43,655 nt of DNA from Oscillospiraceae bacterium (GCA_045533025.1 JAZSHA010000019.1:1-43655); one strand, 5' to 3'. Positions 2,716 to 20,271 are shown, counted from the stretch's first letter. Made by a program: numbers and translations. Notes: generated by a model not told the origin, from the sequence alone.

Positions 2716-3393
2716 GTGTACCTTTTGGTAGAACTTAAAAATGTTAGTGTTACATATTCAAACGGCGTTGACGCTCTTAATGATGTAAGTCTGCGCATAA
2801 ATGACGGCGAATTTGCTTTCGTAGTCGGCAAATCGGGCGCAGGTAAAAGTACTCTTATCAGACTTTTGCTTCAAGAGATTGAGCCTACAAGCGGAAGGAT
2901 TACAGTAAACGGCTTTAATCTCAGCAAGCTCAAGAAAAACAAGGCGCACAAGCTTCGTCGTACAATTGGTTTTGTATTTCAGGACTTCAAGCTTATCGAC
3001 ACTATGAACGTGTATGATAATGTTGCGTTCGTGCTCAGAAGCATTGACGCACCAATCAAATATATCCGCAACCGTGTGCCTTATGTTATCAGCCTTGTTG
3101 GGCTCAAGGACAAGGCTAAGGCTTTCCCTCACGAGCTTTCAGGTGGTGAACAGCAGCGTGTTGCACTGGCAAGAGCGCTTGTAAATGACCCTCAGCTTAT
3201 CATTGCTGACGAGCCTACAGGTAACCTTGACCCTACAAACAAAATCGAAATTCTTGAACTGCTCAAGGCTATCAATGCCTGCGGTACAACTGTTATGGTT
3301 GTTACCCATGAGCACGAGCTTGTTCAGTATTTCGGCGGACGAACAATCAGTATCACCGACGGACGAATTACCTTCGACGATTATATCGGTTAA
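2716..3393 (+). CDS. ftsE: Cell-division ABC transporter ATP-binding protein FtsE
   Basis: Walker A GKSGAGKST, ABC signature LSGGEQQRVALARAL, Walker B LIIADEPTGNLD; directly followed by ftsX. The start may be GTG 2716 or in-frame TTG 2725. Confidence 0.92.
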   Translation: MYLLVELKNVSVTYSNGVDALNDVSLRINDGEFAFVVGKSGAGKSTLIRLLLQEIEPTSGRITVNGFNLSKLKKNKAHKLRRTIGFVFQDFKLIDTMNVYDNVAFVLRSIDAPIKYIRNRVPYVISLVGLKDKAKAFPHELSGGEQQRVALARALVNDPQLIIADEPTGNLDPTNKIEILELLKAINACGTTVMVVTHEHELVQYFGGRTISITDGRITFDDYIG

Positions 3394-3418
3394 GCTACGG
3401 AAAGGAAGTTTACTTTAA

Positions 3419-4330: not shown

Positions 4331-4340
4331 AGGATTATTT

Positions 4341-5627
4341 ATGAAAATTATCAGAACCATAAAAAAAACAAGTGCACTCCTCATTGCGTGCACAATGGCT
4401 GTCAGCAGCGTTCTTTCGGGCATTATTGTTACGGCAGATACAATGTCCGAGCTTGAAGCAAAACAGGCTAAACTTGAAGAAGAGCTTCAGAATGTCGAGT
4501 CACTCCTTTCAGAATATGAGGACAAAGCTGACGAGGTCGAGAAATACCTTGACGAGTATGACAACAAGATGAAGGTGCAGGAAGAACAGGTCAAGGTTGT
4601 CGAGGAACAGATTGAAATTTATGAGGAAAAGCTTACTGCTCTTGAAGAAGATATTGCTGCGAAGGAAGCAGAATTCAATAACGGTATTGAACAGTTCCGT
4701 CAGCGTCTCCGCGCTCTTTATATGGCAGGTAATGACAGCCTTGCTTCGGTAATTGCAGGCTCCTCCGATTTCTATGATATGCTTGCAAGAATGGAATTTG
4801 TTGAACGTGTCTCCAAGCATGACAATGACCTTATTGACTCTCTCAATACTCAGATTACAGAGCTTGAGGAAACAAAAGCTGAATACGAAACTACTCTTGA
4901 ACAGCTTGAAACTAAAAAAGCTGAAGAAGAGGCTTACTACGAGGAACTTCGTGAAACCTACAACGGTCACGCTGAAACAAAACAGATGCACGAAAATATG
5001 ATTGCTGACTATGAGGCACGTGCTGACGAAATTGCTGACGAGCAGGCAGAGGTTGAAGAAGAACTTCAGGCTGAAATCCGCAGACTTCAGGAAGAAGCTG
5101 AAAGAAAGCGTAAGGAAGAGGAAGAACGCAGACGTAAGGAAGAAGAAAAGAAGAAGCAGGAGGCTGAAGCTAACGGTCAGAATTATGTTCCTCAGCCAGC
5201 CGCTCCTACTTACTCTGATACAGGATTTATCTGGCCTGTTCCGACAGTTCGAAACACCTCTGATATGTATGGTGAACGCTGGATTGTTGAAGAACAGAGC
5301 AGCGACTTCCACAAAGGTATTGACATCACAAAGCCTGGCTGTGCAGGTGAAACTATAGTTGCTTCCGCTGGAGGTACTGTAATTCAGGCAAGCGACAAGG
5401 GCAACGGCTACGGCAAATGTGTAATCATCGACCACGGCAACGGAATTGCCACACTTTACGCTCATTGCAGCGAGCTTTACACATCTATGGGTGCTACTGT
5501 TGCGCAAGGCGACCCTATCGGTGCAATCGGCTGCACAGGCTATGCTTACGGTAACCACCTCCACTTTGAGGTGCGTATTGACGGTCAGCACACCAACCCT
5601 TCCAACTATGTAAATATCAACAATTAA
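4341..5627 (+). CDS. Secreted or anchored coiled-coil M23 (LytM-type) peptidoglycan endopeptidase
   Basis: Signal/anchor segment, then about 250 aa of heptad-rich charged sequence. The C-terminal M23 domain has HKGIDI (HxxxD) and GNHLHFEV (HxH) intact. Confidence 0.9.
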   Translation: MKIIRTIKKTSALLIACTMAVSSVLSGIIVTADTMSELEAKQAKLEEELQNVESLLSEYEDKADEVEKYLDEYDNKMKVQEEQVKVVEEQIEIYEEKLTALEEDIAAKEAEFNNGIEQFRQRLRALYMAGNDSLASVIAGSSDFYDMLARMEFVERVSKHDNDLIDSLNTQITELEETKAEYETTLEQLETKKAEEEAYYEELRETYNGHAETKQMHENMIADYEARADEIADEQAEVEEELQAEIRRLQEEAERKRKEEEERRRKEEEKKKQEAEANGQNYVPQPAAPTYSDTGFIWPVPTVRNTSDMYGERWIVEEQSSDFHKGIDITKPGCAGETIVASAGGTVIQASDKGNGYGKCVIIDHGNGIATLYAHCSELYTSMGATVAQGDPIGAIGCTGYAYGNHLHFEVRIDGQHTNPSNYVNINN

Positions 5628-5642
5628 CAACTGAGGTTTTAT

Positions 5643-6860
5643 ATGAACAAAAAAATTTCACTGGGAATTACCATCGGACTTATGGCTTTGGCTGCGGCAG
5701 TAACGTTTATCATTACTTATAACTATTCCCTCAACGTCTTCAACTCAAAAGTAAAGAGTGTTTCCGAAAAGGAAAGTATTTATGTAAGGCTCTCCGAAAT
5801 GGATAAGTATGTTCGTGCCAATTACATAAACGATATTGATGAAGAACTGCTGAATAACAGCATTATGAACGGCTACATCAAGGGACTTGATGACCGTTTT
5901 GCAAAGTATTATTCCGCTGAGGAATACGCTCAGCAGACTCAAAAAGAGTCTGGTATCAATGTGGGGCTCGGTTTCAGCTACGAAAAGGAAGAAAGCGGGT
6001 ACATCAAAATTACCGAGGTAACAGCAAATTCTTCCGCTGAAACAGCAGGGCTTCTTGTGGGTGATGTTGTTACAGCGATAAACAACACAGACGTTATTGC
6101 ATTTGAAGGCGGTTATGATGAAGCTGTCACACTTCTGAACTGCGATGAAGGTACAAAGGTAAAGCTTCACGTCAAGCGTACAAATCTTGAAGGTATATCA
6201 GAATTTTTTGCGGTTGAAGTTGTTTCTGAAAAGACGGAAATTATCTCTGTAACAGGCAGAAATATTGACAATATTGCTTATGTAAAAATCACAACCTTCA
6301 ACGAAAAGACACCTGAGCAATTTGAAACAGTTCTCAATAAGCTTATCGGAGAAGGCGCTGAAATGATTATATTTGACGTCCGTGATAATCTCGGTGGTCT
6401 TACTGCATCTCTACAGGGTACACTTGACAGACTTCTCGGAGATGGCGACATTGTTACAGCTCACTATCGTGATAAATCCGAGGTTGTAATTCACACTACC
6501 GAAGCTACACAGGTAAAAATGCCTATGGCGGTTATTGTAAACAAAGGTACAGCTTCCTGTGCTGAGCTGTTCGCTTTTGCACTCCGTGATGAGGCTAATG
6601 CTCAGATTGTCGGCACAGGTACCTACGGAAAAGGTGTTATGCAGAAAACACACAAGCTTTCAGGCGGTGCGGCTGTAAAAATCACTGTTGCAACTCTTCA
6701 AACTCAAAACAGCGGAAACTACAACGGTGTTGGAATAATCCCTAACTTTGAGGTTTCTCTGCCTGCGGAAGTTGAACTTGCACTGCTTGATGAGGAACAG
6801 CAGCTTGAGGCTGACACACAGCTTATCAAGGCAATTGAAGTTGTTTCAACAATTCAGTAA
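5643..6860 (+). CDS. S41-family carboxy-terminal processing protease with PDZ domain
   Basis: N-terminal TM anchor, PDZ-like GLLVGDVVTAINN, S41 core motifs GTASCAELFAFAL and TYGKGVMQ. Confidence 0.9.
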   Translation: MNKKISLGITIGLMALAAAVTFIITYNYSLNVFNSKVKSVSEKESIYVRLSEMDKYVRANYINDIDEELLNNSIMNGYIKGLDDRFAKYYSAEEYAQQTQKESGINVGLGFSYEKEESGYIKITEVTANSSAETAGLLVGDVVTAINNTDVIAFEGGYDEAVTLLNCDEGTKVKLHVKRTNLEGISEFFAVEVVSEKTEIISVTGRNIDNIAYVKITTFNEKTPEQFETVLNKLIGEGAEMIIFDVRDNLGGLTASLQGTLDRLLGDGDIVTAHYRDKSEVVIHTTEATQVKMPMAVIVNKGTASCAELFAFALRDEANAQIVGTGTYGKGVMQKTHKLSGGAAVKITVATLQTQNSGNYNGVGIIPNFEVSLPAEVELALLDEEQQLEADTQLIKAIEVVSTIQ

Positions 6861-6875
6861 GAAAGGATACCTGTT

Positions 6876-7181
6876 ATGGACGAATTTAACTATCTTCTCG
6901 TGCTTGTGCTGTTTATGCTCTTTGTCACGGTTTTTATGGATATGATTTCGCTTTTTATGGTAAAAAAGGGCAGCGTGGATATTGAGGACTACGCTACAGC
7001 GGTTCTGAAATGGCCTAAAGTTATCCTTCTTGTTATTTTCGGAATTATTATGCTTTATTACGCATTTACAACTGTAGCTTCTGCATGGACACTTGCGGCA
7101 GAACTGATTGTGGGTGTTCTTGTCATTGCGGACGGCATAGTCGGAATTATTATAAAGGCAAAGCACGGTAAAAAGAAATGA
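6876..7181 (+). CDS. Small membrane protein (about 3 TM), function unknown
   Basis: 101-aa ORF with three hydrophobic segments. Ribosome-binding site GAAAGGA lies 8 nt upstream; ATGA overlap with the next gene. Confidence 0.6.
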   Translation: MDEFNYLLVLVLFMLFVTVFMDMISLFMVKKGSVDIEDYATAVLKWPKVILLVIFGIIMLYYAFTTVASAWTLAAELIVGVLVIADGIVGIIIKAKHGKKK

Positions 7182-7837
7182 GTTTATTTAAGAGAAAAGT
7201 CCGATTTGAAAAGGCACTTGTAATTCTGAGTGAAAAAGGTTTTTCGCGTGAATACACGGAAATGCTGAAAAGTGAACTTGAAACAGCTGAGCGTCCAAAG
7301 GATATTGCTAAAGGGAAAAGTTTTCTTGCAAATGCACTTCTTATTCAGGGCAGCCTTACTGAGGCATATGCTGTATTTGAGGAAATAAATCTGAAACACC
7401 TTGACTCTCATCTGCACGGAAATCTCATAAGCAATATGGTTTTCTGCCTTTATGTGCAGAATAAGTTCAAGCCTGCTGAGGAGCTGTACCAAAAATATAA
7501 CGCCGCTATACTCAATGAGCACAGCGACGCTTCAAGGCGAAGTCTTGCAATTCATCAGCATATTCGTGGACAGTACGAGGCTGCAATAGAAATACTTGCA
7601 GGTATGCTGGACAGCGAATGCCGTTTCCTTGATATTTGTATGGTTAAAGCAATGCTGCGGCTTGATATGTACGAGCGTGCAGCTGAATTTACTAAATTTT
7701 TTGACAGATATGAAAACTGCGGGGAGATGACAAAGGAAATCCATAAGCTGAAAAATAAGGTTTTTGATGGACTGCCTCCAAAGCTGAAGACACAGTATAT
7801 CAAATCAACTGTAAAAGTAAAAAATGCTACAAAATAA
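7178..7837 (+). CDS. Hypothetical helical-repeat (TPR-like) protein
   Basis: 219-aa ORF coupled to the upstream gene by a 4-nt overlap. It looks like helical repeats; I recognise no catalytic motif. Confidence 0.55.
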   Translation: MSLFKRKVRFEKALVILSEKGFSREYTEMLKSELETAERPKDIAKGKSFLANALLIQGSLTEAYAVFEEINLKHLDSHLHGNLISNMVFCLYVQNKFKPAEELYQKYNAAILNEHSDASRRSLAIHQHIRGQYEAAIEILAGMLDSECRFLDICMVKAMLRLDMYERAAEFTKFFDRYENCGEMTKEIHKLKNKVFDGLPPKLKTQYIKSTVKVKNATK

Positions 7838-7845
7838 GCGTACCG

Positions 7846-7871
7846 ATTTCTCGGTACGCTTAAATTATTAT
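7846..7871. terminator. Bidirectional intrinsic terminator between convergent genes
   Basis: AAGCGTACCGA (7846-7856), loop TTTC, TCGGTACGCTT (7861-7871). It is flanked by an A-run upstream and T-rich sequence downstream. Confidence 0.8.
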
Positions 7872-7879
7872 TTGACTGA

Positions 7880-9883
7880 TTATTCAGCAGCTTCTTCTCT
7901 GTTCTTCTTGTTTGCATAAAGCATTGTAAGGAAGGAAGCAATTGCAGCAGCTGCTGCGCCTCTTGGAAGAGCCATGCTGTTACCTGTTGTTGGGTTGTCA
8001 GTTGCACCGTCAACGAGAAGTGGGTCATCACCGAGAGGAACATCGCCGTCCTCAAAGCTTTCCAGTGGGTCATTGCCAAGTGGAACATCGCTGTCATCAA
8101 AATCGACAAGGTTATCTGTATTGTTTGCATCAACAGAAGTGTTGTTTTCAGCAGGTACAGTCGGAGCTGGAGCAACTGTATCGGCATCAGAAACTGTATC
8201 ATTTACAACAGGAGCTGATGGGATAGTTGCGTTTGGTGTACTTGTATTTGGTACACTTGGAGCTGTAGGTGCTGTAGGTGCTGTTGGTGCACTTGGAACA
8301 CTTGGTGCTGTAGGAACACTTGGAATTACAGGAGTGCTTGGTGTGCTTGGTGTTTCAGGCACAATTGGTGTTGCAGGAACATCAACATCAGGTGTTGTTG
8401 GAATAGTTGTATCAGGTGTGCTTGGAGCAACATCTGGTGTTGTTGGAATAGTTGTATCAGGTGTGCTTGGTGTTACAGGCGCATCAACATTTGGTGTATT
8501 TGGAACAACAGGGTCAATCGGGTCAACAAGGTCGAGAATGTTATCGCCTGTTGGTTCGTCGCCAGTATTGTCGCCGCCAGTTGTGTTGGAACCACCTTCT
8601 GGTGTAGAGCCACCTTCTGAACCTGTTTCTGGATCAGTTTTTGGATCTGAGTCTGGATCCTCAAACGGATCACTGCCTGTTGGAATATCGCTATCATCGA
8701 TTTCTTCAAGCTGGAGGTCACCGTGGAAATCCCATCTGTGAGACTCGCCGCCGATTGTTACATTCTGGGCAATAACGTTACCATCAAAATTAGCTCCGAA
8801 AGTAACATCAGCATCAGGAGCAAGAACACAGCCTGAGAAAACATTATTTATAGCAATATTGCTTGTGTTGATGAAATTCCAAAGGATTCTGGAATCGGTA
8901 AAATTAGTTACTTCATCATTTTTACGCTCGGTTCCATCCTCATAATAAACCTTAACCTGGCTATTGATTACAACATCTGTGCCCTCGCCGTCAACATTAA
9001 TGAGAAGAGTCTGGTCGCTGTCATCATCGCAGCCAACAAGATTGCGGATGTTAAACAAAGCAATATTCGCAAAGTCAGAAGCCTTCATATTAACAACGCT
9101 GAGACCATCTTCATTGATTACAATATAAGAATTGTTCATATCGCTGAAGTCAGTATCGGTTTCTGTTTCTGTATATTCCGCAAGAACATCAGAAAGATTA
9201 TCATACACCTTCATTTCAGCATCAAGGTCAATATACTTTGTACCTTCCTGCTCAATGAAAATATTATCCTTGTTGTTTTCGGAATAGATTTCGTTTCCTT
9301 CTGAATCAACAACCATATAACCGTTTTCATTGTTATACTCTTCGATTGCAACATCAGAACCCAAAACAATGGTCATATCTGTATTTGTTCGATTGATCTT
9401 AGTGTCAACATTTTCAATATAGACAATATCCGCTTCATATAAATCATCTGTGCCGAAGTTTTTATCAGAACCAAGCTTGTTAGCAGCAATATTACCATTT
9501 ACATGAGCATTGTTTTCAACAGTACCGTTAGTAAAGATATGGAAGTTATTAGCGATACCAAGCTCTGCGTCCTTATCATAGAAAGAAGAGTCGTAATAAG
9601 TTTCGCCGATAGCCATACCATTGGAATTAACAAGCTCTGCACCTGTTTCGGGGATAACGTCCTGACTTGTAACGATATCGCCCTTATCATCGCCTGCTTC
9701 TTCGACATCAGAAAACTCATCGCCACCGTCTTCTGCCTGACGACTCATCTGTGTTCCTGCAGCTGTTGCAGTTTCAGCAATCTCAGCAGCACTTGCAGTA
9801 GGAGACTGAGCAGCGAACATACTCATTGCAAAGGTAAATGCGGCAACGGATTTAATTAATGTTTTTTTCTTGTTGTTATCCAT
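7880..9883 (-). CDS. Cell-surface protein: choice-of-anchor-A domain, Pro/Thr-rich repeats and a C-terminal sorting-signal-like tail
   Basis: The start is refined to ATG 9883, with GGGAGGA 7 nt upstream. Signal peptide KTLIKSVAAFTFAMSMFAAQSPTASA. Choice-of-anchor-A hallmarks: LGIANNFHIFTNGTVENNAHVNGNIAANKLG, and later GCVLAPDADVTFGANFDGNVIAQNVTIGGESHRWDFHG. The C-terminus has NPTTG, then a hydrophobic stretch, then KKNR. Confidence 0.85.
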   Translation of the reverse strand: MDNNKKKTLIKSVAAFTFAMSMFAAQSPTASAAEIAETATAAGTQMSRQAEDGGDEFSDVEEAGDDKGDIVTSQDVIPETGAELVNSNGMAIGETYYDSSFYDKDAELGIANNFHIFTNGTVENNAHVNGNIAANKLGSDKNFGTDDLYEADIVYIENVDTKINRTNTDMTIVLGSDVAIEEYNNENGYMVVDSEGNEIYSENNKDNIFIEQEGTKYIDLDAEMKVYDNLSDVLAEYTETETDTDFSDMNNSYIVINEDGLSVVNMKASDFANIALFNIRNLVGCDDDSDQTLLINVDGEGTDVVINSQVKVYYEDGTERKNDEVTNFTDSRILWNFINTSNIAINNVFSGCVLAPDADVTFGANFDGNVIAQNVTIGGESHRWDFHGDLQLEEIDDSDIPTGSDPFEDPDSDPKTDPETGSEGGSTPEGGSNTTGGDNTGDEPTGDNILDLVDPIDPVVPNTPNVDAPVTPSTPDTTIPTTPDVAPSTPDTTIPTTPDVDVPATPIVPETPSTPSTPVIPSVPTAPSVPSAPTAPTAPTAPSVPNTSTPNATIPSAPVVNDTVSDADTVAPAPTVPAENNTSVDANNTDNLVDFDDSDVPLGNDPLESFEDGDVPLGDDPLLVDGATDNPTTGNSMALPRGAAAAAIASFLTMLYANKKNREEAAE
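8391..8480 (-). repeat. Two tandem 45-bp copies inside the surface-protein gene (encoding STPDTTIPTTPDV-type repeats)
   Basis: Copy 8391-8435 and copy 8436-8480 match at 42 of 45 positions by my alignment. Adjacent 9-nt GGTGCTGTA-like microrepeats at about 8250-8330 encode the APTAPTAPS stretch. Confidence 0.8.
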
Positions 9884-10075: not shown

Positions 10076-11131
10076 TCAATTGTTGACACGCTTTGCCATG
10101 ATATCCTGATTATACGCATAATTTACAGCCGTCTCCGCTGTAATAATTCCGTCACGATATAATTTCAGCAACGAGCTGTCCATAGTCTGCATCTCAGGCT
10201 CGGACTGGAGCACGGTATCAATTTGGTGGGTTTTCTGCTCTCGTATCATTGTGCGGATTGCGTTATTCACAACCATAATTTCAAACGCAGGCACAAGTCC
10301 TCCATCAACAGCAGGTACAAGCTGCTGTGAAACAACTGCACGAAGCACCATAGAAAGCTGAATTCTGATTTGATGCTGCTGATTTGTAGGGAACACATCG
10401 ATAATTCTGTCCACAGTATTCGCTGCGCCGTTTGTATGGAGCGTGGAGAGCACAAGCTGACCAGTTTCAGCCGCTGTCATAGCTATATTGATTGTTTCAA
10501 AGTCACGCATTTCACCCAGCAGAATTACATTCGGTGACTGACGAAGCGCTGCTCTCAAAGCGTCAACGTAGCTGCCCGTATCAATACCGATTTCACGCTG
10601 GCTGATAATACATTTTTTATGCTTATGCAGGAATTCGATTGGGTCTTCTATAGTTATTATATGCCCCTCAGCGGTAGAATTGATTTTGTCAATCATACAC
10701 GACAGCGTGGTTGACTTGCCGTTTCCTGCCGCACCTGTAACAAGCACAATGCCGCCTTTCAGCTCGGAAAGGTTCATTACGCTGTCAGGGATGCCAAGCT
10801 TTGAGCTGTCGGGGAGCTCAAACGGAACACATCTGAGAACAGCCGAAAAGGAGCCTCTCTGACGGTATATATTGGCTCTGAAACGTCCTGTTCCCTTTAT
10901 AGAAAACGAGAAGTCCATTTCGCTTTTCAGGTCATCAGGGCTGGTAATATCAATCTGCGCAAGTGAAAAAATCTCAAAAACAGCAAGCCTTGTATCGTCG
11001 GGCATAAGTATATCACCGCCTGCCGAAACAACACGTCCGTTGATTTTATATGCAAGCGCCGCACCCGAAATCATAAAGATGTCGGAAGCCTCCTTCTTTA
11101 CAGCGTCAACAAGAATTTCCTTTATATCCAT
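10076..11131 (-). CDS. pilT: PilT-family type IV pilus ATPase (retraction-type hexameric ATPase)
   Basis: 351 aa. Walker A GAAGNGKST, Asp box IITIEDPIEF, Walker B VILLGEMRD, His box STLHT, and the PilT-signature-like AIRTMIREQK (compare AIRNLIRE). Confidence 0.88.
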   Translation of the reverse strand: MDIKEILVDAVKKEASDIFMISGAALAYKINGRVVSAGGDILMPDDTRLAVFEIFSLAQIDITSPDDLKSEMDFSFSIKGTGRFRANIYRQRGSFSAVLRCVPFELPDSSKLGIPDSVMNLSELKGGIVLVTGAAGNGKSTTLSCMIDKINSTAEGHIITIEDPIEFLHKHKKCIISQREIGIDTGSYVDALRAALRQSPNVILLGEMRDFETINIAMTAAETGQLVLSTLHTNGAANTVDRIIDVFPTNQQHQIRIQLSMVLRAVVSQQLVPAVDGGLVPAFEIMVVNNAIRTMIREQKTHQIDTVLQSEPEMQTMDSSLLKLYRDGIITAETAVNYAYNQDIMAKRVNN

Positions 11132-11148
11132 CGTTCAAAATCTCCAAT

Positions 11149-11604
11149 CTATTCTCCGAGCCATACATTCAAAGGCTCTTCCTCTAGCTCATCACCCTGT
11201 ATTGTTCTCCAATCCGTAATATCAGCACCATTGTCTGAAATGGTTACAGCTGAATATATGCTCTGCCTTTCATTTATTTCGGTTGTCCAGCTTATTTCAA
11301 TTCTGTCAAAGTAGCTTTCATAGCTTGCTCCCTCAATTCCGTCAAGCTCCTCAAGAAGCATAAAATCGCTGTAATCCTCATACTCGGAAACAATTTCCGC
11401 AACCCTTGCAAGAGTCTGCTTCGCGCGGGTATCAGCTTCGTAATACGCCTTTGTGTATGCCGCACTTTTTTCGCTGTATTTTCCTTCGGACTCAGCTGCC
11501 GAAAATGAAAGCGCAGCAAGAATTGTCAGACACAGCACCACAAAAATCATCATCAGTGACAAATAGCCCGTGCCGATACCTGCGGGACGTGTTTTATTCT
11601 TCAT
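11149..11604 (-). CDS. Small N-terminally anchored protein, pseudopilin-like architecture (d)
   Basis: Start taken at MKNKTRPAGIGTGYLSLMMIFVVLCLTILAAL, with an 11-nt overlap with the upstream stop. One N-terminal hydrophobic helix and an acidic domain of about 110 aa. No G|FTLxE motif. Confidence 0.55.
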   Translation of the reverse strand: MKNKTRPAGIGTGYLSLMMIFVVLCLTILAALSFSAAESEGKYSEKSAAYTKAYYEADTRAKQTLARVAEIVSEYEDYSDFMLLEELDGIEGASYESYFDRIEISWTTEINERQSIYSAVTISDNGADITDWRTIQGDELEEEPLNVWLGE

Positions 11605-12076
11605 CGAAAAGCACCGTCCTTTCTGGAATATATGAAGCCGCATTTATCTCGTACAGCATATTTCCGTCGCTATCCTTGAAGAAAATATGAGCCGTTTTGT
11701 ATCTGCCTTCATATTCGCTGTATGTAACCTGCATTGTCATAAAAATTTCGGCATCCTTCATATAGGAATAGGTGCAATCATCGTTCAGAGGGACATCAAT
11801 TCTTGTTGCTTCCTCAAAGCTTTCAGAGTCAATTCCGAACAGCTTCTCAGCCGTCTCTGAAATGCTGCCTGTTTCGGAGAAAAGCTCCGCCGCTGACTGT
11901 GCACAGAAAGCCATTCTTTCGAGCCTTATATTTTCAGCAGACATTCTGTCCGCTGCTACAAATGCTTTCAGAATTACCGCCGAGGCAATGCCGAAAAACA
12001 ACAACACAATAATCATTTCCAACAGGAAAAGATTCAGCCTTCCGCCCCTTGACACTGTTTTTATGAGACTACGCAT
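11594..12076 (-). CDS. Small N-terminally anchored protein with a degenerate prepilin-like N-terminus (c)
   Basis: Start refined to ATG 12076, with GGAGGTGA 5 nt upstream. MRSLIKTVSRGGRLNLFLLEMIIVLLFFGIASAV contains Gly-Gly and a Glu inside the hydrophobic helix, but not at canonical spacing. Confidence 0.6.
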   Translation of the reverse strand: MRSLIKTVSRGGRLNLFLLEMIIVLLFFGIASAVILKAFVAADRMSAENIRLERMAFCAQSAAELFSETGSISETAEKLFGIDSESFEEATRIDVPLNDDCTYSYMKDAEIFMTMQVTYSEYEGRYKTAHIFFKDSDGNMLYEINAASYIPERTVLFDEE

Positions 12077-12539
12077 TTCCGTCACCTCCGTCTGTCTTTC
12101 GGCAGTACGCTTCAAAGCTGCTGCCATTATCGTCGGTAACGCTTACGAAAATCAAACCGTGTTTATCCTTCATTGACAGGATTTCCGCCTCAAATAGCTC
12201 CTCGCCGCCCTCAGCAACAATGATATCACCCTCTACAAAAAGGCGCTCGTAAACCTTGCCATTTTGCTGATAAATAAGGGTACAATACCCCGTATTTTCC
12301 AGCAGCAGCTGATTTTCGTCAAGTATCTCCGCACCTTCACTTGCACGGATTTTATTTGTTATGTAACGCACCGCCGCTGTCGAATTGAAGGTGCTGCCGT
12401 AATTATCGTTGATACGGCTGTAGGCTGAGGCAGCAACCGCAATCATCACCAGACAGCATACCGCAAAAAGCAGAAACAGCGTCATATTCGCCGCCGAGCT
12501 GATTGTTTCTGTCATACGCTTTGTTTCAGGTCTGTCCAT
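12069..12539 (-). CDS. Small N-terminally anchored protein, pseudopilin-like architecture (b)
   Basis: 156-aa ORF; ISSAANMTLFLLFAVCCLVMIAVAASAY hydrophobic helix followed by a soluble domain of about 110 aa. Weak ribosome-binding site, so the start is uncertain. Confidence 0.55.
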   Translation of the reverse strand: MDRPETKRMTETISSAANMTLFLLFAVCCLVMIAVAASAYSRINDNYGSTFNSTAAVRYITNKIRASEGAEILDENQLLLENTGYCTLIYQQNGKVYERLFVEGDIIVAEGGEELFEAEILSMKDKHGLIFVSVTDDNGSSFEAYCRKTDGGDGNA

Positions 12540-12614
12540 AATCTATAACCATTTTCCCGACAGGAAAATGCACTCCTTTCCGGCATTTTGTAAACTGTCC
12601 CGACCTATTCGGGA

Positions 12615-12926
12615 TTACTCCGACTTTTCAGCAACAACTACCGTCGGACGAATATTTGCGCCGAAATATCTGTAATCAACTATATATTTATCACTGTCAA
12701 CAATTACACCGTAATTCTCTTTCAGATAATCAAGGTCGGAAGGATACTCCCCTTCTATCGAGTAGCAAAGAACAGCTCCGTTCATAACCGTGCTGTAAAC
12801 CGAGTCCGTGCGCTTTCTGTCAGCCGCATTATCGGCGTTGCCTACCGAAACCACAAACCATACAACCACCAGCGCAAAAAGAATTACCGAAAGAATTGTC
12901 AGCCTGCTGATACGCTTTTTTCCCAT
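12615..12926 (-). CDS. Small N-terminally anchored protein (a), first gene after the platform gene
   Basis: Start refined to ATG 12926, with AAGGAG 8 nt upstream. MGKKRISRLTILSVILFALVVVWFVVSV helix plus a domain of about 70 aa. Confidence 0.55.
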   Translation of the reverse strand: MGKKRISRLTILSVILFALVVVWFVVSVGNADNAADRKRTDSVYSTVMNGAVLCYSIEGEYPSDLDYLKENYGVIVDSDKYIVDYRYFGANIRPTVVVAEKSE

Positions 12927-12943
12927 TTCAAGCACTCCTTAAA

Positions 12944-13987
12944 TCAACCGACCGTTGTGATTATGTCCGTCATAGGGAGCATTACCGCCAGCAAAACCGA
13001 ACCGATAATTACTGCAAGAATACCAATTATTGCAGGTTCGATAAAGGAAACTGCTCCGTAGATTTTTCTGTCGCATTCCTGAGTAAACCGCTCACTGATT
13101 TTCTGCCACGCCGAGTCAAAGGAACCTGACTTATACGCAACCTTCAGCGAGTGTGCAAAAACAGATGGAAGAAGCTTTGATTTTGCAATTGCTTCAGCAA
13201 ACTTTTCCCCGTCAAGAACCAGCTTTTCGCACTCCTTGATACGCTTGCGAACCATCTTGTTTTCCGTTAATTCATACACCATTTCCAATGACTGTTCGGG
13301 AGAAATTCCGCAGGAAACCATCATACTGATAGCATTTGTAATATCAGCCATAGCCATAGTCTCAGCAAGTCCCCTTGTAAGTATAAAATTGGAAACAATG
13401 CTGTACAACCACTTTCTTGCCGACGGAATTCGTGTCAACAGTGCTGTAACAAGAGTTATAACCAGCACAGCAGCAAGAACAATCATTACACCGACGCCAA
13501 GGCTGTATGCAAAGGAAATGCTGCCCTCAACCGCCGCTGCCGCGCTGTCATCAAACTGAAAGAAAATATCCCTGAACATAGGAATAATCTTGATAACCAT
13601 AACAATAATAACAACAGTCATCATCGCCAACAGCATAAGCGGGTGAGAAACCGAGCTTTTGATTGTCTGCCGCAGTTCGGCACGCTTTGAATAATAATCG
13701 GAAAGCCCATTGAGAGCGTCCTCCAAACGTCCTGTAAGAGCGCCGATTTTAACCATTTTTACCGCGTAATCAGGAAAAATTCCCGACTTATCCATAGCAT
13801 CAAAAAGAGTTATATCATCCTTCATAAGTTCCGTCAGAACATCGGAAATTTCCTTGAAGCGCTTATCGCCTGCATCTTCAGAAAGCACCTCTATACCGTC
13901 AGCAATAGGTATACCTGCCTCCATAAGCATAGCAAGCTGTTCGCAGAAAAAAGCTGTCTCCTCATTTGTAAGCATTTTAATAGCCAT
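12944..13987 (-). CDS. PilC/GspF-family (T2SS F) polytopic platform protein
   Basis: Start refined to ATG 13987, with AGGAGG 9 nt upstream. The track ORF extends to 14107 but overlaps the upstream gene. Two T2SSF-like repeats (FFCEQLAMLMEAGIPIADGIEVL and AISMMVSCGISPEQSLEMV), each followed by TM segments. Confidence 0.85.
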   Translation of the reverse strand: MAIKMLTNEETAFFCEQLAMLMEAGIPIADGIEVLSEDAGDKRFKEISDVLTELMKDDITLFDAMDKSGIFPDYAVKMVKIGALTGRLEDALNGLSDYYSKRAELRQTIKSSVSHPLMLLAMMTVVIIVMVIKIIPMFRDIFFQFDDSAAAAVEGSISFAYSLGVGVMIVLAAVLVITLVTALLTRIPSARKWLYSIVSNFILTRGLAETMAMADITNAISMMVSCGISPEQSLEMVYELTENKMVRKRIKECEKLVLDGEKFAEAIAKSKLLPSVFAHSLKVAYKSGSFDSAWQKISERFTQECDRKIYGAVSFIEPAIIGILAVIIGSVLLAVMLPMTDIITTVG

Positions 13988-14009
13988 CTTAGATTTCCTC
14001 CTCATTACG

Positions 14010-15230
14010 TCAATATCTGTACATAGCGGAATAATTGCTGTCATCTTCAATGTAATCCGCAATTTTTTCTTTATCGGGATTGCCTGCATAAAAGGTTGCA
14101 TCGGCAATATTGTAGCCCTTTTTCTTCAGGAAAAGCTCAGGAGTTATCCAGCCTGTTTCGTCAATGTAAACCTCATTCCAGGCGTGATAGATATCAGGCT
14201 CTGCATAGCCTATCACAAGCCTTGTGGGTATCCCCTGAGAACGGCACATCGCCGCCATAAGCGAAGCATAATCAAAGCATATTCCCGTTCCCAGCTTCAA
14301 GGTCTTGTCAGGGTCGGGAATGTAACCGCTTTTCACTGTAGCCGCAAGCTGCTTGTCATATTTGGTGTTACCTGCGACATATCCGAATATTTCCGCTATT
14401 TTTTCAACTTCTTCATCAATCCCTGCACAAAGCTCAGCCGCTTTTTTCACAGCGTTTGAGCTGCTGTCGAAATTAACGTATTTATTGGGGTAAAGATACA
14501 TTCCTGTCGAGCTTTTTATCTTCACATCAAACTCAGCCGAAACAGCCTCTCCGTAGCTTTTCCCTACCACAAGCTCGTAAATCTTCACCGAATAGCTGCC
14601 GCTTTCCATAAGAGGAAAAAACTCTCTTGTTCCATCGGCGGCAAGGTCGTGGTCATACTGCAAATCGCCGCATTTTATCCTTAGCTTTGCACGTGTACTT
14701 TTACCCGTGTAAACAGCCGAAATATATCCCTCATTCGCACAGCTGAAATCAATCTCACCCTTATCGTTTGTTTCAGCCTTTGAGCCGCTTGCAAGGGGGA
14801 TTTTTATTTCGGGAATTACAACCTCTGCCTTTGGCTTTTCGGTTACTTTTTCTGTTGTAGTTTGCTCTGTTGTCGGTACAGTAGTTTCAACTGTAGTCTG
14901 CACTGTTGTTTCCGACTCCATAACAGAAGCAACCGTCTCTGACGGTGTTGTCTCCGTTACTGACGTTTCCGTTGCTGTTATTTCGGAAACTGTCTCCGTA
15001 ACAGACTGCTCTGACGTTTCAGACACCGTCTCAGTCATTTCTGTTGGAGTTTCAGAAGCTGTCTCAGATTTTTCGGCAGTTTGTGTAAAGGTTTCCGCTT
15101 CTGTTTCCGTAACGACAGTTACACTTAACGAAGTGCTTTCAGACACGCTTGCAGTTGACGTATCACCGCTGCACGCCGAAAGCATAAAAACGCAAAGGGA
15201 GAGCATCATACACAACAAGACTCTGCGCAT
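14010..15230 (-). CDS. Lipoprotein with Thr/Glu/Ser-rich linker, beta-rich middle region and C-terminal transglutaminase-like cysteine protease core
   Basis: Lipobox MLSAC|SGD. Low-complexity TETVSETSEQSVTETVSEITATETSVTETTPSETV. TGase core GTGICFDYASLMAAMCRSQGIPTRLVIGY....YHAWNEVY (Cys and His recognisable). Confidence 0.85.
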   Translation of the reverse strand: MRRVLLCMMLSLCVFMLSACSGDTSTASVSESTSLSVTVVTETEAETFTQTAEKSETASETPTEMTETVSETSEQSVTETVSEITATETSVTETTPSETVASVMESETTVQTTVETTVPTTEQTTTEKVTEKPKAEVVIPEIKIPLASGSKAETNDKGEIDFSCANEGYISAVYTGKSTRAKLRIKCGDLQYDHDLAADGTREFFPLMESGSYSVKIYELVVGKSYGEAVSAEFDVKIKSSTGMYLYPNKYVNFDSSSNAVKKAAELCAGIDEEVEKIAEIFGYVAGNTKYDKQLAATVKSGYIPDPDKTLKLGTGICFDYASLMAAMCRSQGIPTRLVIGYAEPDIYHAWNEVYIDETGWITPELFLKKKGYNIADATFYAGNPDKEKIADYIEDDSNYSAMYRY

Positions 15231-15249
15231 AATTTCTCTCCCTCCTTTA

Positions 15250-15924
15250 TTATTTATTTCTTGAATTTATGGTAGTGTGAATATCCTGCATCTCATAATC
15301 AATTACAGAAATCTCATCAGCACATTTTTTCAATCTCTCGTGCAGGTCATCATCAACTGCATTGTTTGTTTTGTATTTCAGCTTATGCTCAAGGCTTGCC
15401 CAGAAATCCATAGCAATTGTGCGTATCTGTATCTCAACAGGCATACGCACAGGACCCGTTGACAAAAAAACAGGAACCTCAACAATGAGGTGCAGACTTT
15501 TGTAGCCTGATGGCTTAGGATTTTTTATATAATCCCTCATCTGAAGCACTGTCACATCGTCCTGTGCCATAAGCATTTCCGCAACACGGTATATATCATC
15601 AATGTAATTGCAGATAACCCTTATTCCTGCAATATCTGTGATATTCGCCGTTATTGAATCAATACTTACCTCAAGCCCCTTGGACTTGATTTTCTGAACA
15701 ATGCTGGGCATAGATTTTAACCTTGACTCAATGTTGTGTATGGGGTTATAGGAAAACTTTGATTTGAATTCTTCATCGAGAATTTCAAGCTTTGTGCGGA
15801 CTTCCTTTATTCCGCCTTGATACAACTGCATACGGGCAGCAAATTTTTTCATTATCTGTTCCAGCTCCGAGCCTTCGGGAACGTCTACCAGCTCGTCAAG
15901 TCTGTACATTGCTTCATCAATCAT
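15250..15924 (-). CDS. Small alarmone synthetase (RelP/RelQ-type GTP pyrophosphokinase)
   Basis: 224 aa. DIAGIRVICNYIDDIY, GYKSLHLIVEVPV and VEIQIRTIAMDFWASLEHKLKYK closely follow the pattern I recall for Bacillus YwaC/YjbM-type synthetases. Confidence 0.9.
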   Translation of the reverse strand: MIDEAMYRLDELVDVPEGSELEQIMKKFAARMQLYQGGIKEVRTKLEILDEEFKSKFSYNPIHNIESRLKSMPSIVQKIKSKGLEVSIDSITANITDIAGIRVICNYIDDIYRVAEMLMAQDDVTVLQMRDYIKNPKPSGYKSLHLIVEVPVFLSTGPVRMPVEIQIRTIAMDFWASLEHKLKYKTNNAVDDDLHERLKKCADEISVIDYEMQDIHTTINSRNK

Positions 15925-15959
15925 TTTTATCGTCCTTTTGCATAATATTTCCCAGCATC

Positions 15960-15988
15960 ATTTTACCACTTTTTTTGCATAATGTCAA
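15960..15988 (-). promoter_or_regulatory. Near-consensus promoter heading the eight-gene minus-strand operon
   Basis: Minus strand: TTGACA (15988-15983), 17-nt spacer ending in TGG (extended -10), TAAAAT (15965-15960). This lies about 30 nt upstream of the alarmone synthetase ATG. Confidence 0.65.
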
Positions 15989-16521: not shown

Positions 16522-16556
16522 TTTCTTACAATCAGTAATTATTGGGGGTAACCTTT

Positions 16557-17591
16557 ATGAATAAGAAAATTACAGCCATTGTGCTTTCTGCCATGATTCT
16601 TACAGCCTGCAATGCTGAAGAAAAAGAACAGCAGGTTACGGGGACTGTAACCGAAATTTCTCTTACCGAAATTATCACCGAAGATAACTTTCCCGAGCCT
16701 GAGCTTGATAAGGAACCCGAACTTATCAAGCTTGCACTTTATAGTCCGTTCAGTGATAATGATAAGATTGTTCTTGATGACGATTTGCGTGAGGAACTTG
16801 TGAGAATTGCCGAAGAAGAGGTTGAAAGGAGTCTTTCTTATGAAATCACTCACCTTTCCGAGTCACCAAAGGATACTTACATATTAAGCTACAGTGAAGA
16901 TAAATTTGAAGCAATGGTTATTCCATATGAACGATATACTGAAGGATTTTTAATTTATTTTCCCGTTTTTATCAAGGAAGATGGACAATGGATTTGTGAC
17001 AGCTGTGAAACAAAGCGATATTATATATACGAATACTCAATGCTTTATGAAATTCTGGTGCTGAACCTTGATAAGTGGAATTCAATTCTCATCGGTAATG
17101 TTGACAAAAGTGCTCCGTCAGTAATAATCGGAGATGAGGAGTACAAGCCTGCTGATACAGGAATGACCATTGATGAAATGCGTGAATTTTTTGACAGCAA
17201 TCTCAGCGAAGAAATCAGTGAGAAATACAAGAAAAAATATATTGATGATGCTTACGGAATGCTTGACGGAAAGCTTTACCGTAAATGTTCCGAGCCTGAA
17301 TGGATACTCCCCGAAGCACAGCTTGATGTATTTAATCTAAATGGGAGCTCGTGGCATGAACCTGTGCCGAACAAACAGTTTCCGTTTGAATATCACAATT
17401 GGATAAGCGTAGATTTCCTCAATCCCAACAGCGGCAGAATAATGCCTAGATATGGCTTTTATCTGCACGTAAGCAGAGCGGATGAAATTTTTTACTATGA
17501 TAAGGAAAACGAAGAGCCCATTTTTCCGATTTATGACCGATATATTAAAAGTGAGCTTCCCATATTACCTAAAATGGAGGCAACAGAATGA
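16557..17591 (+). CDS. Lipoprotein, paralog 1 of a tandem family (shortest member)
   Basis: Start refined to ATG 16557, with GGGGGT upstream. Lipobox ILTAC|NAEEKEQQVTG. Shares the N-terminal block and the C-terminal TGMTIDEMREFF...LDGKLYRK motifs with paralogs 2 and 3. Confidence 0.75.
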   Translation: MNKKITAIVLSAMILTACNAEEKEQQVTGTVTEISLTEIITEDNFPEPELDKEPELIKLALYSPFSDNDKIVLDDDLREELVRIAEEEVERSLSYEITHLSESPKDTYILSYSEDKFEAMVIPYERYTEGFLIYFPVFIKEDGQWICDSCETKRYYIYEYSMLYEILVLNLDKWNSILIGNVDKSAPSVIIGDEEYKPADTGMTIDEMREFFDSNLSEEISEKYKKKYIDDAYGMLDGKLYRKCSEPEWILPEAQLDVFNLNGSSWHEPVPNKQFPFEYHNWISVDFLNPNSGRIMPRYGFYLHVSRADEIFYYDKENEEPIFPIYDRYIKSELPILPKMEATE

Positions 17592-18952
17592 AAAAGATAA
17601 TTTGCATAACCCTCTCTGCCCTGCTTCTCACAGCTTGTCACGCTGAAGAAAAAGAACAGCAGGTTACGGGCACAACACCTGACGAAACATCTATTACAAC
17701 CTCACTTACACTGACGGAGATTGTTACAGAGGAAATACCGTTTATTCCCGAGGAGGAAGAAAAGCAGGAAGTTATTGAACTTGCGGTTTTTGACCCATTT
17801 GAGGACTCGGTTGCGGTTGAGGACGAGGTTTATCGTGAGCTTTCCGAGGCTGTAGAAAGAATTTCTGACGGACGTGCATTTTTGTACAGCAATCCGACAG
17901 GCTTTTTCAGCAATTACAGCACACATCAATCCCGATATTATTCAACCTATGCTGATAAGGATAATGTCCTTGAAGACAACATAGAACTTGAATATTATTT
18001 TTGTCCGCTTAATCCCGAAATTGCGGAAACAGAAGAAGAATTGTTTGGATACATACGCAGTATTTTTACTGAAAATATGCATACAGATGAGGAAATAATG
18101 GAGCTTCTTTTTGCAATCGGAAGCTATGACAATCAACCGTGCTATAAGATGATTGATGACAAGCTGTGCATAAAATGTCTGCACGGTGCCCCAGGTGTTA
18201 TGTCAGCTATTGATTTCAGCGCAGTTAATGTGGTTTCTTATGACGAAAATCGTGCTGTGGTACAAAGTGAGGCATCAAGCCTTGATTATCCCGACCCCGT
18301 AGTTACTATGACGCTTGTCAAGTCAGAGGAGTATGGCTGGCGACTTGACAGCATTGAATTCAAGGATTACTACATTGAGGAAGCAACACTTCTTTACAAT
18401 GGTGTAAAACTTCGTGAGGAACAGCTCAACGCTATTCTCGGCGGCGGTACACAGCCCGAAAATCCAAGGACAACCACTGTTGACGGTGAAAGCTACACTG
18501 AAACTAAAACGGGTATGAGTCTTAACGAAATGCAGGAATTTTTCGCTGAAACATTCTGTGAATACATCTTGAATTATCAATATGCTTTTGAAAACAATGA
18601 TTACGAAAACGCAAAAAGCGTACCCTTACGTGACAAGTACATAACTAAATACATTGACAACGTATATTATGAACTTGATGGTACTCTTTACCGTAAGGAC
18701 AGTGCACCAAAATGGTATACACCTGAATTAATAATAAATCCTTACGGAGAAATGAAGCAGTCGGGCGGCGGAGCAAAGATTGACAGCTATTTTGTTATTT
18801 TACAGCCGTACTATGATTTTGTAAAGGACGAGAACTTCAATAAAAATATAACAATAATTTTTGAAGCAGAATATGACGAAAATTATAATTATGAAAGCTG
18901 TTCGTTTATTAATATTGCGTCTGAGATTACGATAAGGGAGATAACAGAATGA
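17588..18952 (+). CDS. Lipoprotein, paralog 2 of the tandem family
   Basis: Lipobox LLTAC|HAEEKEQQVTG; ATGA overlap with paralog 1. Conserved blocks: YGWRLDSIEFKDY, EATLLYNGVKLREEQ, GGTQPENP, TVDGESYTETKTGMSLNEMQEFFAE, YYELDGTLYRKD. Confidence 0.8.
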   Translation: MKKIICITLSALLLTACHAEEKEQQVTGTTPDETSITTSLTLTEIVTEEIPFIPEEEEKQEVIELAVFDPFEDSVAVEDEVYRELSEAVERISDGRAFLYSNPTGFFSNYSTHQSRYYSTYADKDNVLEDNIELEYYFCPLNPEIAETEEELFGYIRSIFTENMHTDEEIMELLFAIGSYDNQPCYKMIDDKLCIKCLHGAPGVMSAIDFSAVNVVSYDENRAVVQSEASSLDYPDPVVTMTLVKSEEYGWRLDSIEFKDYYIEEATLLYNGVKLREEQLNAILGGGTQPENPRTTTVDGESYTETKTGMSLNEMQEFFAETFCEYILNYQYAFENNDYENAKSVPLRDKYITKYIDNVYYELDGTLYRKDSAPKWYTPELIINPYGEMKQSGGGAKIDSYFVILQPYYDFVKDENFNKNITIIFEAEYDENYNYESCSFINIASEITIREITE

Positions 18953-20271
18953 AAAGGATAATTTGCATAGCCCTGTCAGCAGTCTTACTCACTGCTTGCG
19001 GTGCTGAGGAAAAGGAACAACAGGTTACGGGTACAACTCCTGCTGAAACAACAGTTACAACTTCCCTTACACTAACAGAGATTATTACAACGGAAACAAG
19101 TTTTGTACCCGAAGAAACCGAGGAAAAACAGCGAATTGAGATTGCTGTTTTTGACCCATTTGAGAACTCGGTTAAGGTTGAGGACGAGGTTTATCGTGAG
19201 CTTTCTGAGGCGGTGGAGAAGATTTCTGACAGTAACGCATTTCTTAGCGGTAATCTGTCGACAGGACTTCATACGGGTGAATGCTGCCGTTCAAAATATT
19301 ATGATAACTATGCGGATAAAGGAATTGCTTTTTCGGAGGACGGAGAATACGAGCATACATATCATCCGCTTAATCCAGATATCGCCAAAAACGAAGAAGA
19401 ACTTTATGAACGTGTGAGAAGTGCATTTACTGAAAATATGTATACAGATGATGCAATAAGGGAGAGGCTTTTTGCGCCGTTAGTGTACAATGATGACGCA
19501 CCAAACTATAAAACCATTGACGGAACGCTTTGTGTCAATGATGATTATAAAGGAGTAATGACAAAGATTTGTTTCACTCAGTTCAGTATTATTTCGTATG
19601 ATGAAAACCGTGTTAAACTTTCAGCAATGGCAAGAGGTATTGAATATCCATCTCCTAGAGCATTTATGACAATTGTAAAATCCGAGAAATACGGTTGGCG
19701 GCTTGACAGCATTGAATTCAAGGATTACTGGGAGAATGAAGCAACGCTTCTCTATAACGGATTGAAACTTCGTGAAGAACAGTTCAACATAATTTTAAGC
19801 GGTGGCACTCAGCCTGAAAATCCGCTTACAACGATTGTTGACGGAGAAAGCTACACCGAAACAACTACGGGTATGTCATTATCCGAAATGCAGGAGTTTT
19901 TTGCGGAGATGTTCAGCGAGCGTATCCAGCCCGCAAAGCCGAAAACAATAGCTTTGCGTGAGGTTTATACCCAGATGTATATTGATGAGGTTTATTATGA
20001 GCTTGACGGTGTGCTTTACCGAAAAGACAATGCATCGAAGTGGTATTGCCCTGAATTGCAGATTGATCCGTATGATTTAGAAAAAATCTCGTCAGTGTCG
20101 GGAGGTGTTCGTGTTTCGTTTACTGTTAAACCCGAATTTTATGACAAAGTAACTGACGAAACTTTCAGAACAGAGCTTTCTATTACTCACCATATCGATT
20201 TTTACGAAGATTACAAAACCTGTTCATATGTTCAGGTCGCTTCCGAATTACCCATAAAACCCCTTGAATAA
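18949..20271 (+). CDS. Lipoprotein, paralog 3 of the tandem family
   Basis: Lipobox LLTAC|GAEEKEQQVTG; ATGA overlap with paralog 2. It has the same conserved blocks as paralog 2. Confidence 0.8.
   Translation: MKRIICIALSAVLLTACGAEEKEQQVTGTTPAETTVTTSLTLTEIITTETSFVPEETEEKQRIEIAVFDPFENSVKVEDEVYRELSEAVEKISDSNAFLSGNLSTGLHTGECCRSKYYDNYADKGIAFSEDGEYEHTYHPLNPDIAKNEEELYERVRSAFTENMYTDDAIRERLFAPLVYNDDAPNYKTIDGTLCVNDDYKGVMTKICFTQFSIISYDENRVKLSAMARGIEYPSPRAFMTIVKSEKYGWRLDSIEFKDYWENEATLLYNGLKLREEQFNIILSGGTQPENPLTTIVDGESYTETTTGMSLSEMQEFFAEMFSERIQPAKPKTIALREVYTQMYIDEVYYELDGVLYRKDNASKWYCPELQIDPYDLEKISSVSGGVRVSFTVKPEFYDKVTDETFRTELSITHHIDFYEDYKTCSYVQVASELPIKPLE

Follow-up and report, generated by a model that had tools for sequence, protein, structure and literature searches.

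By the textbook parts list, a type IV filament machine requires an ATPase of the assembly clade, a prepilin peptidase and pilins with a class III signal, PilT being an optional add-on for retraction, and the core minor pilins number four in type IVa pili, in type II secretion systems (T2SS) and in Com systems. The Com pseudopilus, encoded by comGA-GB-GC-GD-GE-GF-GG together with comC, has one ATPase, one platform protein of about 330-350 amino acids (aa) and no PilMNO, and its small pilin-like genes directly follow the platform gene. According to the type IV filament superfamily survey (PMC6668835), the Com pilus retracts without PilT, Tad pili extend and retract by means of one ATPase, and the survey's 'generic' model requires a recognisable pilin. 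Here we analyse a stretch of 43,655 nucleotides (nt; 43.6 kb, hereafter the window) from Oscillospiraceae bacterium GCA_045533025.1 (JAZSHA010000019.1:1-43655), which carries a compact module that shares with Com the single ATPase, the single platform, the lack of PilMNO and the run of small genes directly after the platform gene, and in which the ATPase is of the PilT family. An earlier reading made from the sequence alone (hereafter the sequence-only reading) had described it as an eight-gene operon that joins an alarmone synthetase and a transglutaminase-like lipoprotein to a PilC/PilT module.

The conserved unit is of seven genes, not eight, and encodes in order a transglutaminase (TGase)-fold lipoprotein, a PilC-type platform, four small proteins that we call P4, P5, P6 and P7, and the PilT-like ATPase. 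A search with the PilC-like protein returned a family of 347-aa proteins, mostly from Oscillospiraceae metagenome-assembled genomes (MAGs), which carry only the name 'type II secretion system F family protein'. Three contigs whose PilC is 48%, 44% and 30% identical have the same layout, with the TGase gene, PilC, four small genes of which one is a DUF4860 gene, and the PilT-like ATPase. In a scan of one genome per GTDB species, PilC relatives were found in 204 species genomes; 80 loci were fetched, and the window proteins were mapped by BLAST onto 85 loci. All seven genes were found in order by BLAST in 56 of these, while contig ends cut the module in 12. In the remaining 17, which are distant (PilC about 28% identical), the small proteins alone were too diverged for BLAST, and three or four small genes, a DUF4860 gene among them, still separate PilC from PilT in gene tables and open reading frames (ORFs). 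The hosts of the distant loci are Lachnospiraceae, Erysipelotrichaceae, Mogibacterium, Anaerofilum, Allofournierella, Acetatifactor and Parasporobacterium, and the carriers overall also include Oscillospiraceae, Ruminococcus and Ruminiclostridium. Since the arrangement recurs in 85 independent loci, it is not a matter of chance. The sequence-only reading had named conservation beyond this strain as a check on its proposal, and the order of PilC, four small proteins and PilT indeed proves deeply conserved. Nor is the locus a routinely annotated com or pil operon, which would have counted against that reading: the source annotations give it no such name and label the small proteins 'hypothetical'. 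Two module-bearing GTDB records, 'Prevotella sp.' (L025, JAMPIC010000027.1) and 'Escherichia coli' (L062, CAVIFG010000015.1), are probably mis-binned, given their Clostridia-type content.

In the window, eight co-directional ORFs lie on the minus strand between 15988 and 10076. With the elements that flank them, they are as follows:

15960..15988 (-), predicted sigma-70-type promoter-like site upstream of the RelQ-like gene (TTGACA, 17 nt, TG-TAAAAT)
15250..15924 (-), small alarmone synthetase like RelQ/RelP/YjbM, 224 aa, RelA_SpoT 124 bits
14010..15230 (-), TGase-fold lipoprotein, 406 aa, Transglut_core 89 bits
12944..13987 (-), platform of the PilC/GspF/ComGB type, 347 aa, two T2SSF domains
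12615..12926 (-), P4, 103 aa, N-terminal membrane helix, no class III signal, candidate major subunit (ComGC/GspG-like)
12069..12539 (-), P5, 156 aa as called with an uncertain start, DUF4860, one N-terminal hydrophobic helix
11594..12076 (-), P6, 160 aa, pilin-like N-terminus N-L-F-F-x-E-M-I-I
11149..11604 (-), P7, 151 aa, Gly before the hydrophobic helix
10076..11131 (-), hexameric ATPase assigned to the PilT clade, 351 aa, TIGR01420 409 bits
7880..9883 (-), choice-of-anchor-A / pAdhesive_15 surface protein, PF20597 109 bits
7835..7862 (-), intrinsic-terminator-like hairpin (12-bp stem with 6 G-C pairs, then a T-run)

Start codons were picked behind GGAGG-like ribosome-binding sites where present, as they are for most genes; the site of P5 is weak. 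Recomputed from RelQ to PilT, the first four gaps measure 19, 22, 17 and 75 nt, the next two junctions overlap by 8 and 11 nt, and the last gap is of 17 nt; all are identical to the values given by the sequence-only reading. Its account of the region stands in other respects too, as we recovered the eight genes at its coordinates, the near-consensus promoter ahead of them as the best-scoring site of the region, and the choice-of-anchor-A gene downstream on the same strand (PF20597), and scans with hidden Markov models (HMMs) agree with its calls of a synthetase, a TGase-like protein, a platform, four single-helix proteins and a PilT-like ATPase.

The ATPase is assigned by its sequence to the PilT clade and not to an assembly clade. 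It scores 409 bits on the PilT/PilU model TIGR01420, whose cut-off of 319 places it in that family, and falls below the cut-offs of the assembly models (PilB 120/676, GspE 130/630, ComGA 120/300 and the TadA-type TIGR03819 46/373 bits). Among solved structures it is closest to the PilT proteins of Aquifex (348 bits, in an alignment that spans residues 3-337, that is, the full length), Geobacter (295 and 290), Thermus (275) and Pseudomonas (270), ahead of PilU (247), DotB (128), PilB (100) and GspE (91). It has a Walker A motif (GAAGNGKST), ILLGEMRD, and Asp and His boxes, and its AIRTMIRE aligns with the PilT-specific AIRNLIRE motif. The sequence-only reading, which an ATPase of an assembly clade would have contradicted, was therefore right on this point. 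There is exactly one ORF of the T2SSE family per locus in the 73 loci that extend far enough.

The platform has PF00482 in two stretches (148 bits) and is a polytopic membrane protein, as befits the platform of a type IV filament machine. It stays below the cut-off of every NCBIfam subtype equivalog (GspF 155/424, ComGB 121/240); its length is ComGB-like, and it is otherwise a normal two-domain PilC. Two other identities were considered for the module. A Tad system was ruled out on the ATPase scores, and a SpoIIIA-like feeding tube was ruled out because the platform is a full two-domain PilC.

The four small proteins each have a single N-terminal hydrophobic helix in their alignments, and comparison of the four families by hhalign detected no paralogy among them. 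The column counts given below are over 61-80 distinct sequences per family. Behind its helix, P4 has a small domain with an invariant C-Y-x-x-E-G-x-Y-P...L..Y-G motif, and the alignment of its N-terminus holds no conserved Gly or Glu. This family is large (1135 clusters at 50% identity) and has no Pfam model, and none of its best 150 matches carries a class III-like signal. The NCBIfam model matched by most P4 members is ComGC, weakly (3 of 27, best E 0.003); one homolog is named ComGC by IMG, and hhalign places 'EGxYP' in register with the '..YP' of GspG, without significance. A Sec signal peptide in P4 was rejected, since no AxA site is conserved and the helix runs on unbroken in the model. 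The Cys of the C-Y-x-x-E-G-x-Y-P motif is the lone invariant extracytoplasmic Cys of the family, in a protein co-encoded with a Cys-His-Asp enzyme.

P5 matches DUF4860 (PF16152, 31 bits), as does the protein at the same position in relatives, and has a conserved (G/A)-S-M-x-L-F-L-L-F ahead of its hydrophobic helix. In P6, the N-terminal segment has a Glu in 61/61 sequences, and LFFxE is preceded by N in 53 of them, by G in 6, by T in 1 and by R in 1. This Glu is aligned by hhalign with E5 of E. coli GspH, weakly (probability 15%, pairwise E 4e-4), and the E value against GspH TIGR01708 is 0.026. P7 has a Gly directly before the helix in 67/67 sequences (G-x-G|Y-L-S-L-M), Met, Ile or Leu at the Glu5 position, and a C-terminal LNVWxG. 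A Gly before the helix without Glu5 is the pattern of tip subunits of the GspK/ComGG type, and P7 resembles these, as far as its sequence tells, in those N-terminal features only. Only parts of the class III signal (a short basic leader, Gly at -1, a hydrophobic residue at +1 and Glu at +5) are present, the Glu in P6, which lacks the Gly, and the Gly in P7, which lacks the Glu; a search of the ORFs for the class III motif was empty, in keeping with the earlier claim that none of the small proteins has a canonical cleavage motif.

Structures were modelled with AlphaFold2 for P4 and P7, from shallow alignments. The P4 model (pLDDT 88) has a helix at 7-57 (51 residues), a second at 64-71 and two strands forming a hairpin, and that of P7 (pLDDT 77) a helix at 12-73 (62 residues), a second at 81-88 and a four-stranded antiparallel sheet. 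As predicted, P7 would have the classic pilin topology, to which the P4 model fits loosely. As to the pilin-like fold on which the sequence-only reading depended, both models show the long N-terminal helix followed by a beta-hairpin or sheet, while Foldseek finds nothing significant. Pilins do occur among its non-significant matches, at rank 32 for P4 (8pfb) and rank 7 for P7 (7o5y), and the best pilin match of the P7 model is the Streptococcus sanguinis minor pilin PilA (E 0.38, non-significant). The term 'pilin-like' is therefore supported by predicted topology, partial N-terminal signatures and gene context, without a statistically significant match.

The TGase-fold lipoprotein is a core and near-universal component of the module, a point that the sequence-only reading overlooked: its gene is directly upstream of PilC in 82 of the 85 loci. 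It has a lipobox (LSAC), a Thr/Glu/Ser-rich linker, a beta-rich middle domain and a TGase core, whose Transglut_core score of 89 bits against a cut-off of 23 makes it a member of the superfamily. The triad C318 (GICFDY), H349 (YHAWN) and D377 (DATF) is invariant across 24 diverse homologs, the most distant of them 29% identical, with a near-invariant lipobox Cys in the same set; the linker is confined to the Oscillospiraceae clade. By these sequence features the protein is an extracytoplasmic enzyme with an intact active site that travels with the module.

Neither a PilB-type ATPase, nor an A24 peptidase, nor a canonical G|FxxxE prepilin was found anywhere in the window, and the earlier claim that no PilB, peptidase or canonical pilin is in view there holds. 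The same is true around the module at large: within about 10 kb on either side in the 85 loci, no PilB-like ATPase, A24 peptidase, PilMNO or canonical prepilin was found at any locus. An A24 peptidase is absent from the 1.13 Mb of these loci by phmmer with E. coli GspO (E<=10) and by a GxGD motif search, and the class III prepilin motif G[FM..]xxxE occurs in no ORF of the window or of these loci.

Among described systems, the architecture of the module is closest to the Com pseudopilus. Besides the likenesses given above, the first small protein is of about 100 aa in both (P4 being weakly ComGC-like), and the last one lacks Glu5 (P7, as ComGG). The module differs from Com in that its ATPase is of the PilT clade, misses the ComGA cut-off and is encoded at the 3' end, and its platform also fails that of ComGB; in that it has four small proteins instead of five, no canonical G|FxxxE and no ComC/A24 peptidase nearby; and in that the TGase lipoprotein is a fixed part of it. 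With the type IVa pili of Clostridia and of S. sanguinis it shares a PilT-family ATPase, a PilC-type platform and a monoderm host lineage in which type IV pili are well known. However, this PilT comes with a platform of its own and with small proteins that are non-canonical, and PilB, PilD, PilMNO and a class III pilin are missing from the 85 loci. The resemblance to the T2SS (GspE/F/G/H/I/J/K) lies in a platform accompanied by one major-like and several minor pseudopilin-like proteins, with P6 weakly like GspH (its Glu falling on E5) and the 'EGxYP' of P4 in register with GspG. By analogy with the T2SS, a short piston through the thick wall is a plausible mode of action. However, the module misses the GspE and GspF cut-offs, the hhalign comparisons with GspG, I, J and K are non-significant, and there is no secretin, as expected for a monoderm. 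A T2SS-like role of type IV pilus genes has been proposed in a Gram-positive, C. perfringens (bioRxiv 10.1101/2024.11.04.621531), but there the ATPases are of the PilB type and the pilins canonical. The Tad pilus, with its bifunctional ATPase CpaF, offers a precedent for a single ATPase that extends and retracts (PMC6668835); its ATPase is nevertheless of another clade, and it has a TadB/TadC platform, Flp pilins and a TadV peptidase. No description of the module was found in Gram-positive type IV pilus reviews or in the superfamily survey, nor by full-text literature searches on DUF4860, on PilT with transglutaminase, or on PilT in Ruminococcaceae/Lachnospiraceae.

Tentatively, we favour the interpretation that the module is an undescribed, compact, Com-like variant of type IV filament machine with a PilT-family motor, and we recognise that it may well prove wrong. 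The points that we count for it are synteny, spread, the size of the P4 family, the lone PilT-clade ATPase, the lack of an A24 peptidase and of canonical prepilins nearby, the predicted topology of P7 and P4, the P6 Glu, the weak likeness of P4 to ComGC/GspG, the TGase triad and lipobox, and the precedents of the Tad and Com pili and of the T2SS-like role proposed in a Gram-positive. From these we infer filament formation and motor direction, as well as the role of the TGase lipoprotein and the function of the module, along the following lines. In single-membrane gut Clostridia, the PilT-family hexameric ATPase would dock on the module's own PilC-type platform and shuttle P4-P7 between the membrane and a short pseudopilus that spans the wall. 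The four proteins would be its filament subunits, P4 being the candidate ComGC-like major subunit and P5, P6 and P7 minor or tip components. Since an assembly-clade ATPase is found beside the module at none of the loci, we propose that the PilT-type enzyme could be a dedicated motor, either bidirectional or for extraction. Outside the membrane, the TGase lipoprotein, with its intact transglutaminase/cysteine-protease triad, might open or re-seal the peptidoglycan, or cross-link the structure. The adhesins and sortases encoded near the module suggest a role at the cell surface or in adhesion.

The choice-of-anchor-A protein has the make-up of a sortase-anchored adhesin, with a PF20597 domain of 109 bits against a cut-off of 24, a Sec signal, a Pro/Thr-rich stalk and a C-terminal NPTTG followed by a hydrophobic segment and a KKNR tail. 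A homolog is found downstream of PilT on the same strand in 48 loci, where all complete copies close with NPxTG followed by a hydrophobic stretch and a basic tail; the adhesin is thus a clade-level conserved neighbour in one large clade, which the sequence-only reading did not notice. Its gene has an upstream spacer of 192 nt with TGnTATAAT-like elements, and probably has its own promoter. The adhesin family, made up of the window protein and those encoded after PilT in the loci L006-L064, has long acidic TD/PE/SD repeats where MAG contigs very often end, so that the gene is systematically truncated in assemblies. The position after PilT is taken, in a distant clade (L068, L069, L077, L078, L080, L088), by a protein of about 400 aa encoded 7-86 nt downstream; only that of L088 is BTAD by Pfam, the others being grouped with it by their similar size and by a common pattern at the C-terminus, recognised by eye.

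Upstream of the TGase gene, the neighbours change from clade to clade. In 24 loci, a 564-aa protein without a Pfam match and a PGA_cap/Big_2 protein of about 1160 aa are encoded there; PGA_cap is a poly-gamma-glutamate capsule domain, and the two genes are packed directly upstream of the TGase gene (3470-8667 in L001, and 23 other loci of one Oscillospiraceae sub-clade). Other clades have an HD-domain protein, an Hpt protein or a sortase cluster. The last is seen in the distant relative L087, where two sortase genes and six co-directional genes coding for proteins that we could not assign, one faintly DUF5979, precede the module (616-8218); this stretch resembles a cluster for sortase-dependent surface proteins that has become fused to the module. 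In the window itself and its closest relatives, the gene found there is RelQ. Three tandem paralogous genes follow on the plus strand (16542-20271), coding for lipoprotein-like proteins of 349, 454 and 440 aa that have no Pfam match and share the N-terminus MKKI..L..AC(H/N)AEEKEQQVTGT; their homologs flank the module in close relatives. A hybrid histidine kinase of 1322 aa (21862-25830, plus strand), with a weak GGDEF-like domain and with HisKA, HATPase and receiver domains, is kept near the module in the 95%-identical relative L089. The remaining genes of the window are housekeeping ones (ilvC, ftsEX, nusA, infB, truB, ribF and others, with this hybrid kinase among them).

The alarmone synthetase, which the sequence-only reading held to be an integral partner of the module, did not stand as such. 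The RelQ-like protein has a single RelA_SpoT domain, and its score on the YjbM equivalog (188 bits) is below the cut-off of 320; by domain and size (about 200-230 aa in this family) it belongs to the small alarmone synthetases, without assignment to a subtype. Its gene is upstream of the module in only 18 of the 85 loci, all with a PilC at least 70% identical. Because it is found there in this closest clade only, RelQ is a recent, lineage-specific neighbour and not part of the module core. Within the window, the sequence indicates that it is probably co-transcribed with the module. The TTGACA-17-TG-TAAAAT element ahead of RelQ is the top promoter-like site between 7.5 and 16.6 kb (11/12 matches plus the upstream TG), in a region where promoter-like sites as a class are not enriched over shuffled sequences (22 found, 18.8 expected). 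The terminator-like hairpin at 7862-7835, past the choice-of-anchor-A gene, is the first and only strong one 3' of the gene string, and directly 3' of PilT there is only a weak AT-rich hairpin; we regard terminator-like matches inside the RelQ, TGase and P5 coding regions as chance. A genuine stress operon of eight genes, with RelQ-made (p)ppGpp functionally coupled to the pilus-like module, could draw on this single strong promoter, on the lack of a terminator between these two genes, RelQ and TGase, and on the gap of only 19-27 nt between RelQ and the TGase gene in the window and its closest relatives. We nevertheless consider such coupling highly improbable, as RelQ is missing from the neighbourhood in 67 of the 85 loci, with PGA_cap, HD-domain, Hpt or sortase genes in its place in other clades, and as in several of the 18 loci that have it the gene is 370-480 nt away or split from the module by a 154-aa MGMT-like gene.

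Several results weigh against a Com-like filament variant. To our knowledge, PilT-clade ATPases are known only as retraction motors, and the ATPase of the module keeps every canonical PilT motif. No Foldseek match to the PDB reaches E<0.1 (best E 0.97 for P4 and 0.12 for P7), the profiles of the four small-protein families matched nothing above noise among all PDB sequences, no pilin, N-methyl, PilX_N or ComG family came up when all members of the P4, P6 and P7 families were scanned with Pfam, and hhalign against E. coli GspG/H/I/J/K/L/M/C returned only the P6-GspH pair. The invariant Gly of P7 and the Gly/Ala of P5 would fit a prepilin-peptidase site, the enzyme then being encoded elsewhere. 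Indeed, since type IV pili have been called ubiquitous, perhaps universal, in Clostridia (bioRxiv 10.1101/2024.11.04.621531), PilB, PilD and the major pilin may well lie elsewhere in the carrier genomes. These observations lead to a distinctly possible, though somewhat doubtful, alternative, in which the module is an accessory locus for retraction or for minor pilins, its PilT, second platform and four minor pilin-like proteins serving a type IVa pilus whose PilB, PilD, PilMNO and major pilin are encoded at another place. An orthodox PilT and residues suited to a peptidase that the module does not encode are what such a locus would have; its four small proteins equal the core minor pilins in number, and prepilin peptidases are often common to several systems, as the superfamily survey notes (PMC6668835). 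It is harder to reconcile with a module that encodes a PilC itself, whose seven genes, that of the TGase included, hold to one order down to 28% PilC identity, and that never adjoins PilB, PilD, PilMNO or a canonical pilin in the 85 loci. In addition, P4 and P6 do not have the Gly needed by PilD, and the small proteins match no minor-pilin HMM.

That there is no filament at all seems to us improbable. The PilC-PilT pair would then be a membrane motor for another envelope task, such as moving large sortase-anchored adhesins or wall polymers through the peptidoglycan or driving the TGase lipoprotein, and the four bitopic proteins would be a scaffold like PilMNO or GspLM. The recurrent surface and wall neighbours (the NPxTG adhesin in 48 loci, PGA_cap/Big_2 in 24, the two sortases and accompanying surface proteins of L087), the P4 N-terminus without a class III signal and the lack of a significant pilin match all speak for such a motor. 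Yet these accessory neighbours vary by clade and the seven core genes stay the same, the N-terminus of P6 has a pilin-type segment, LFFxEMII, whose Glu is invariant, the predicted topology of P7 is pilin-like, and hhalign of the four families against GspL, GspM and GspC was empty. The most far-reaching form of the filament proposal is a self-sufficient new class in monoderm Clostridia, with a PilT-clade enzyme as sole motor for assembly and disassembly, subunits that escape prepilin-peptidase processing, and a TGase-fold lipoprotein that cross-links the filament or cuts its path through the peptidoglycan; taken as a whole, we find this unlikely.

If autonomous, the module would challenge the textbook parts list of type IV filament machines and would provide a simple monoderm system in which to learn what determines the direction of the motor. 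It would also bring a new enzyme partner, the TGase-fold lipoprotein, to filament biology, and point to a surface apparatus, so far unstudied, in Clostridia of the gut and rumen that are abundant and for the most part uncultured. Should it be accessory to a pilus encoded elsewhere, it would still be a new conserved 'retraction module', together with four sizeable orphan protein families.

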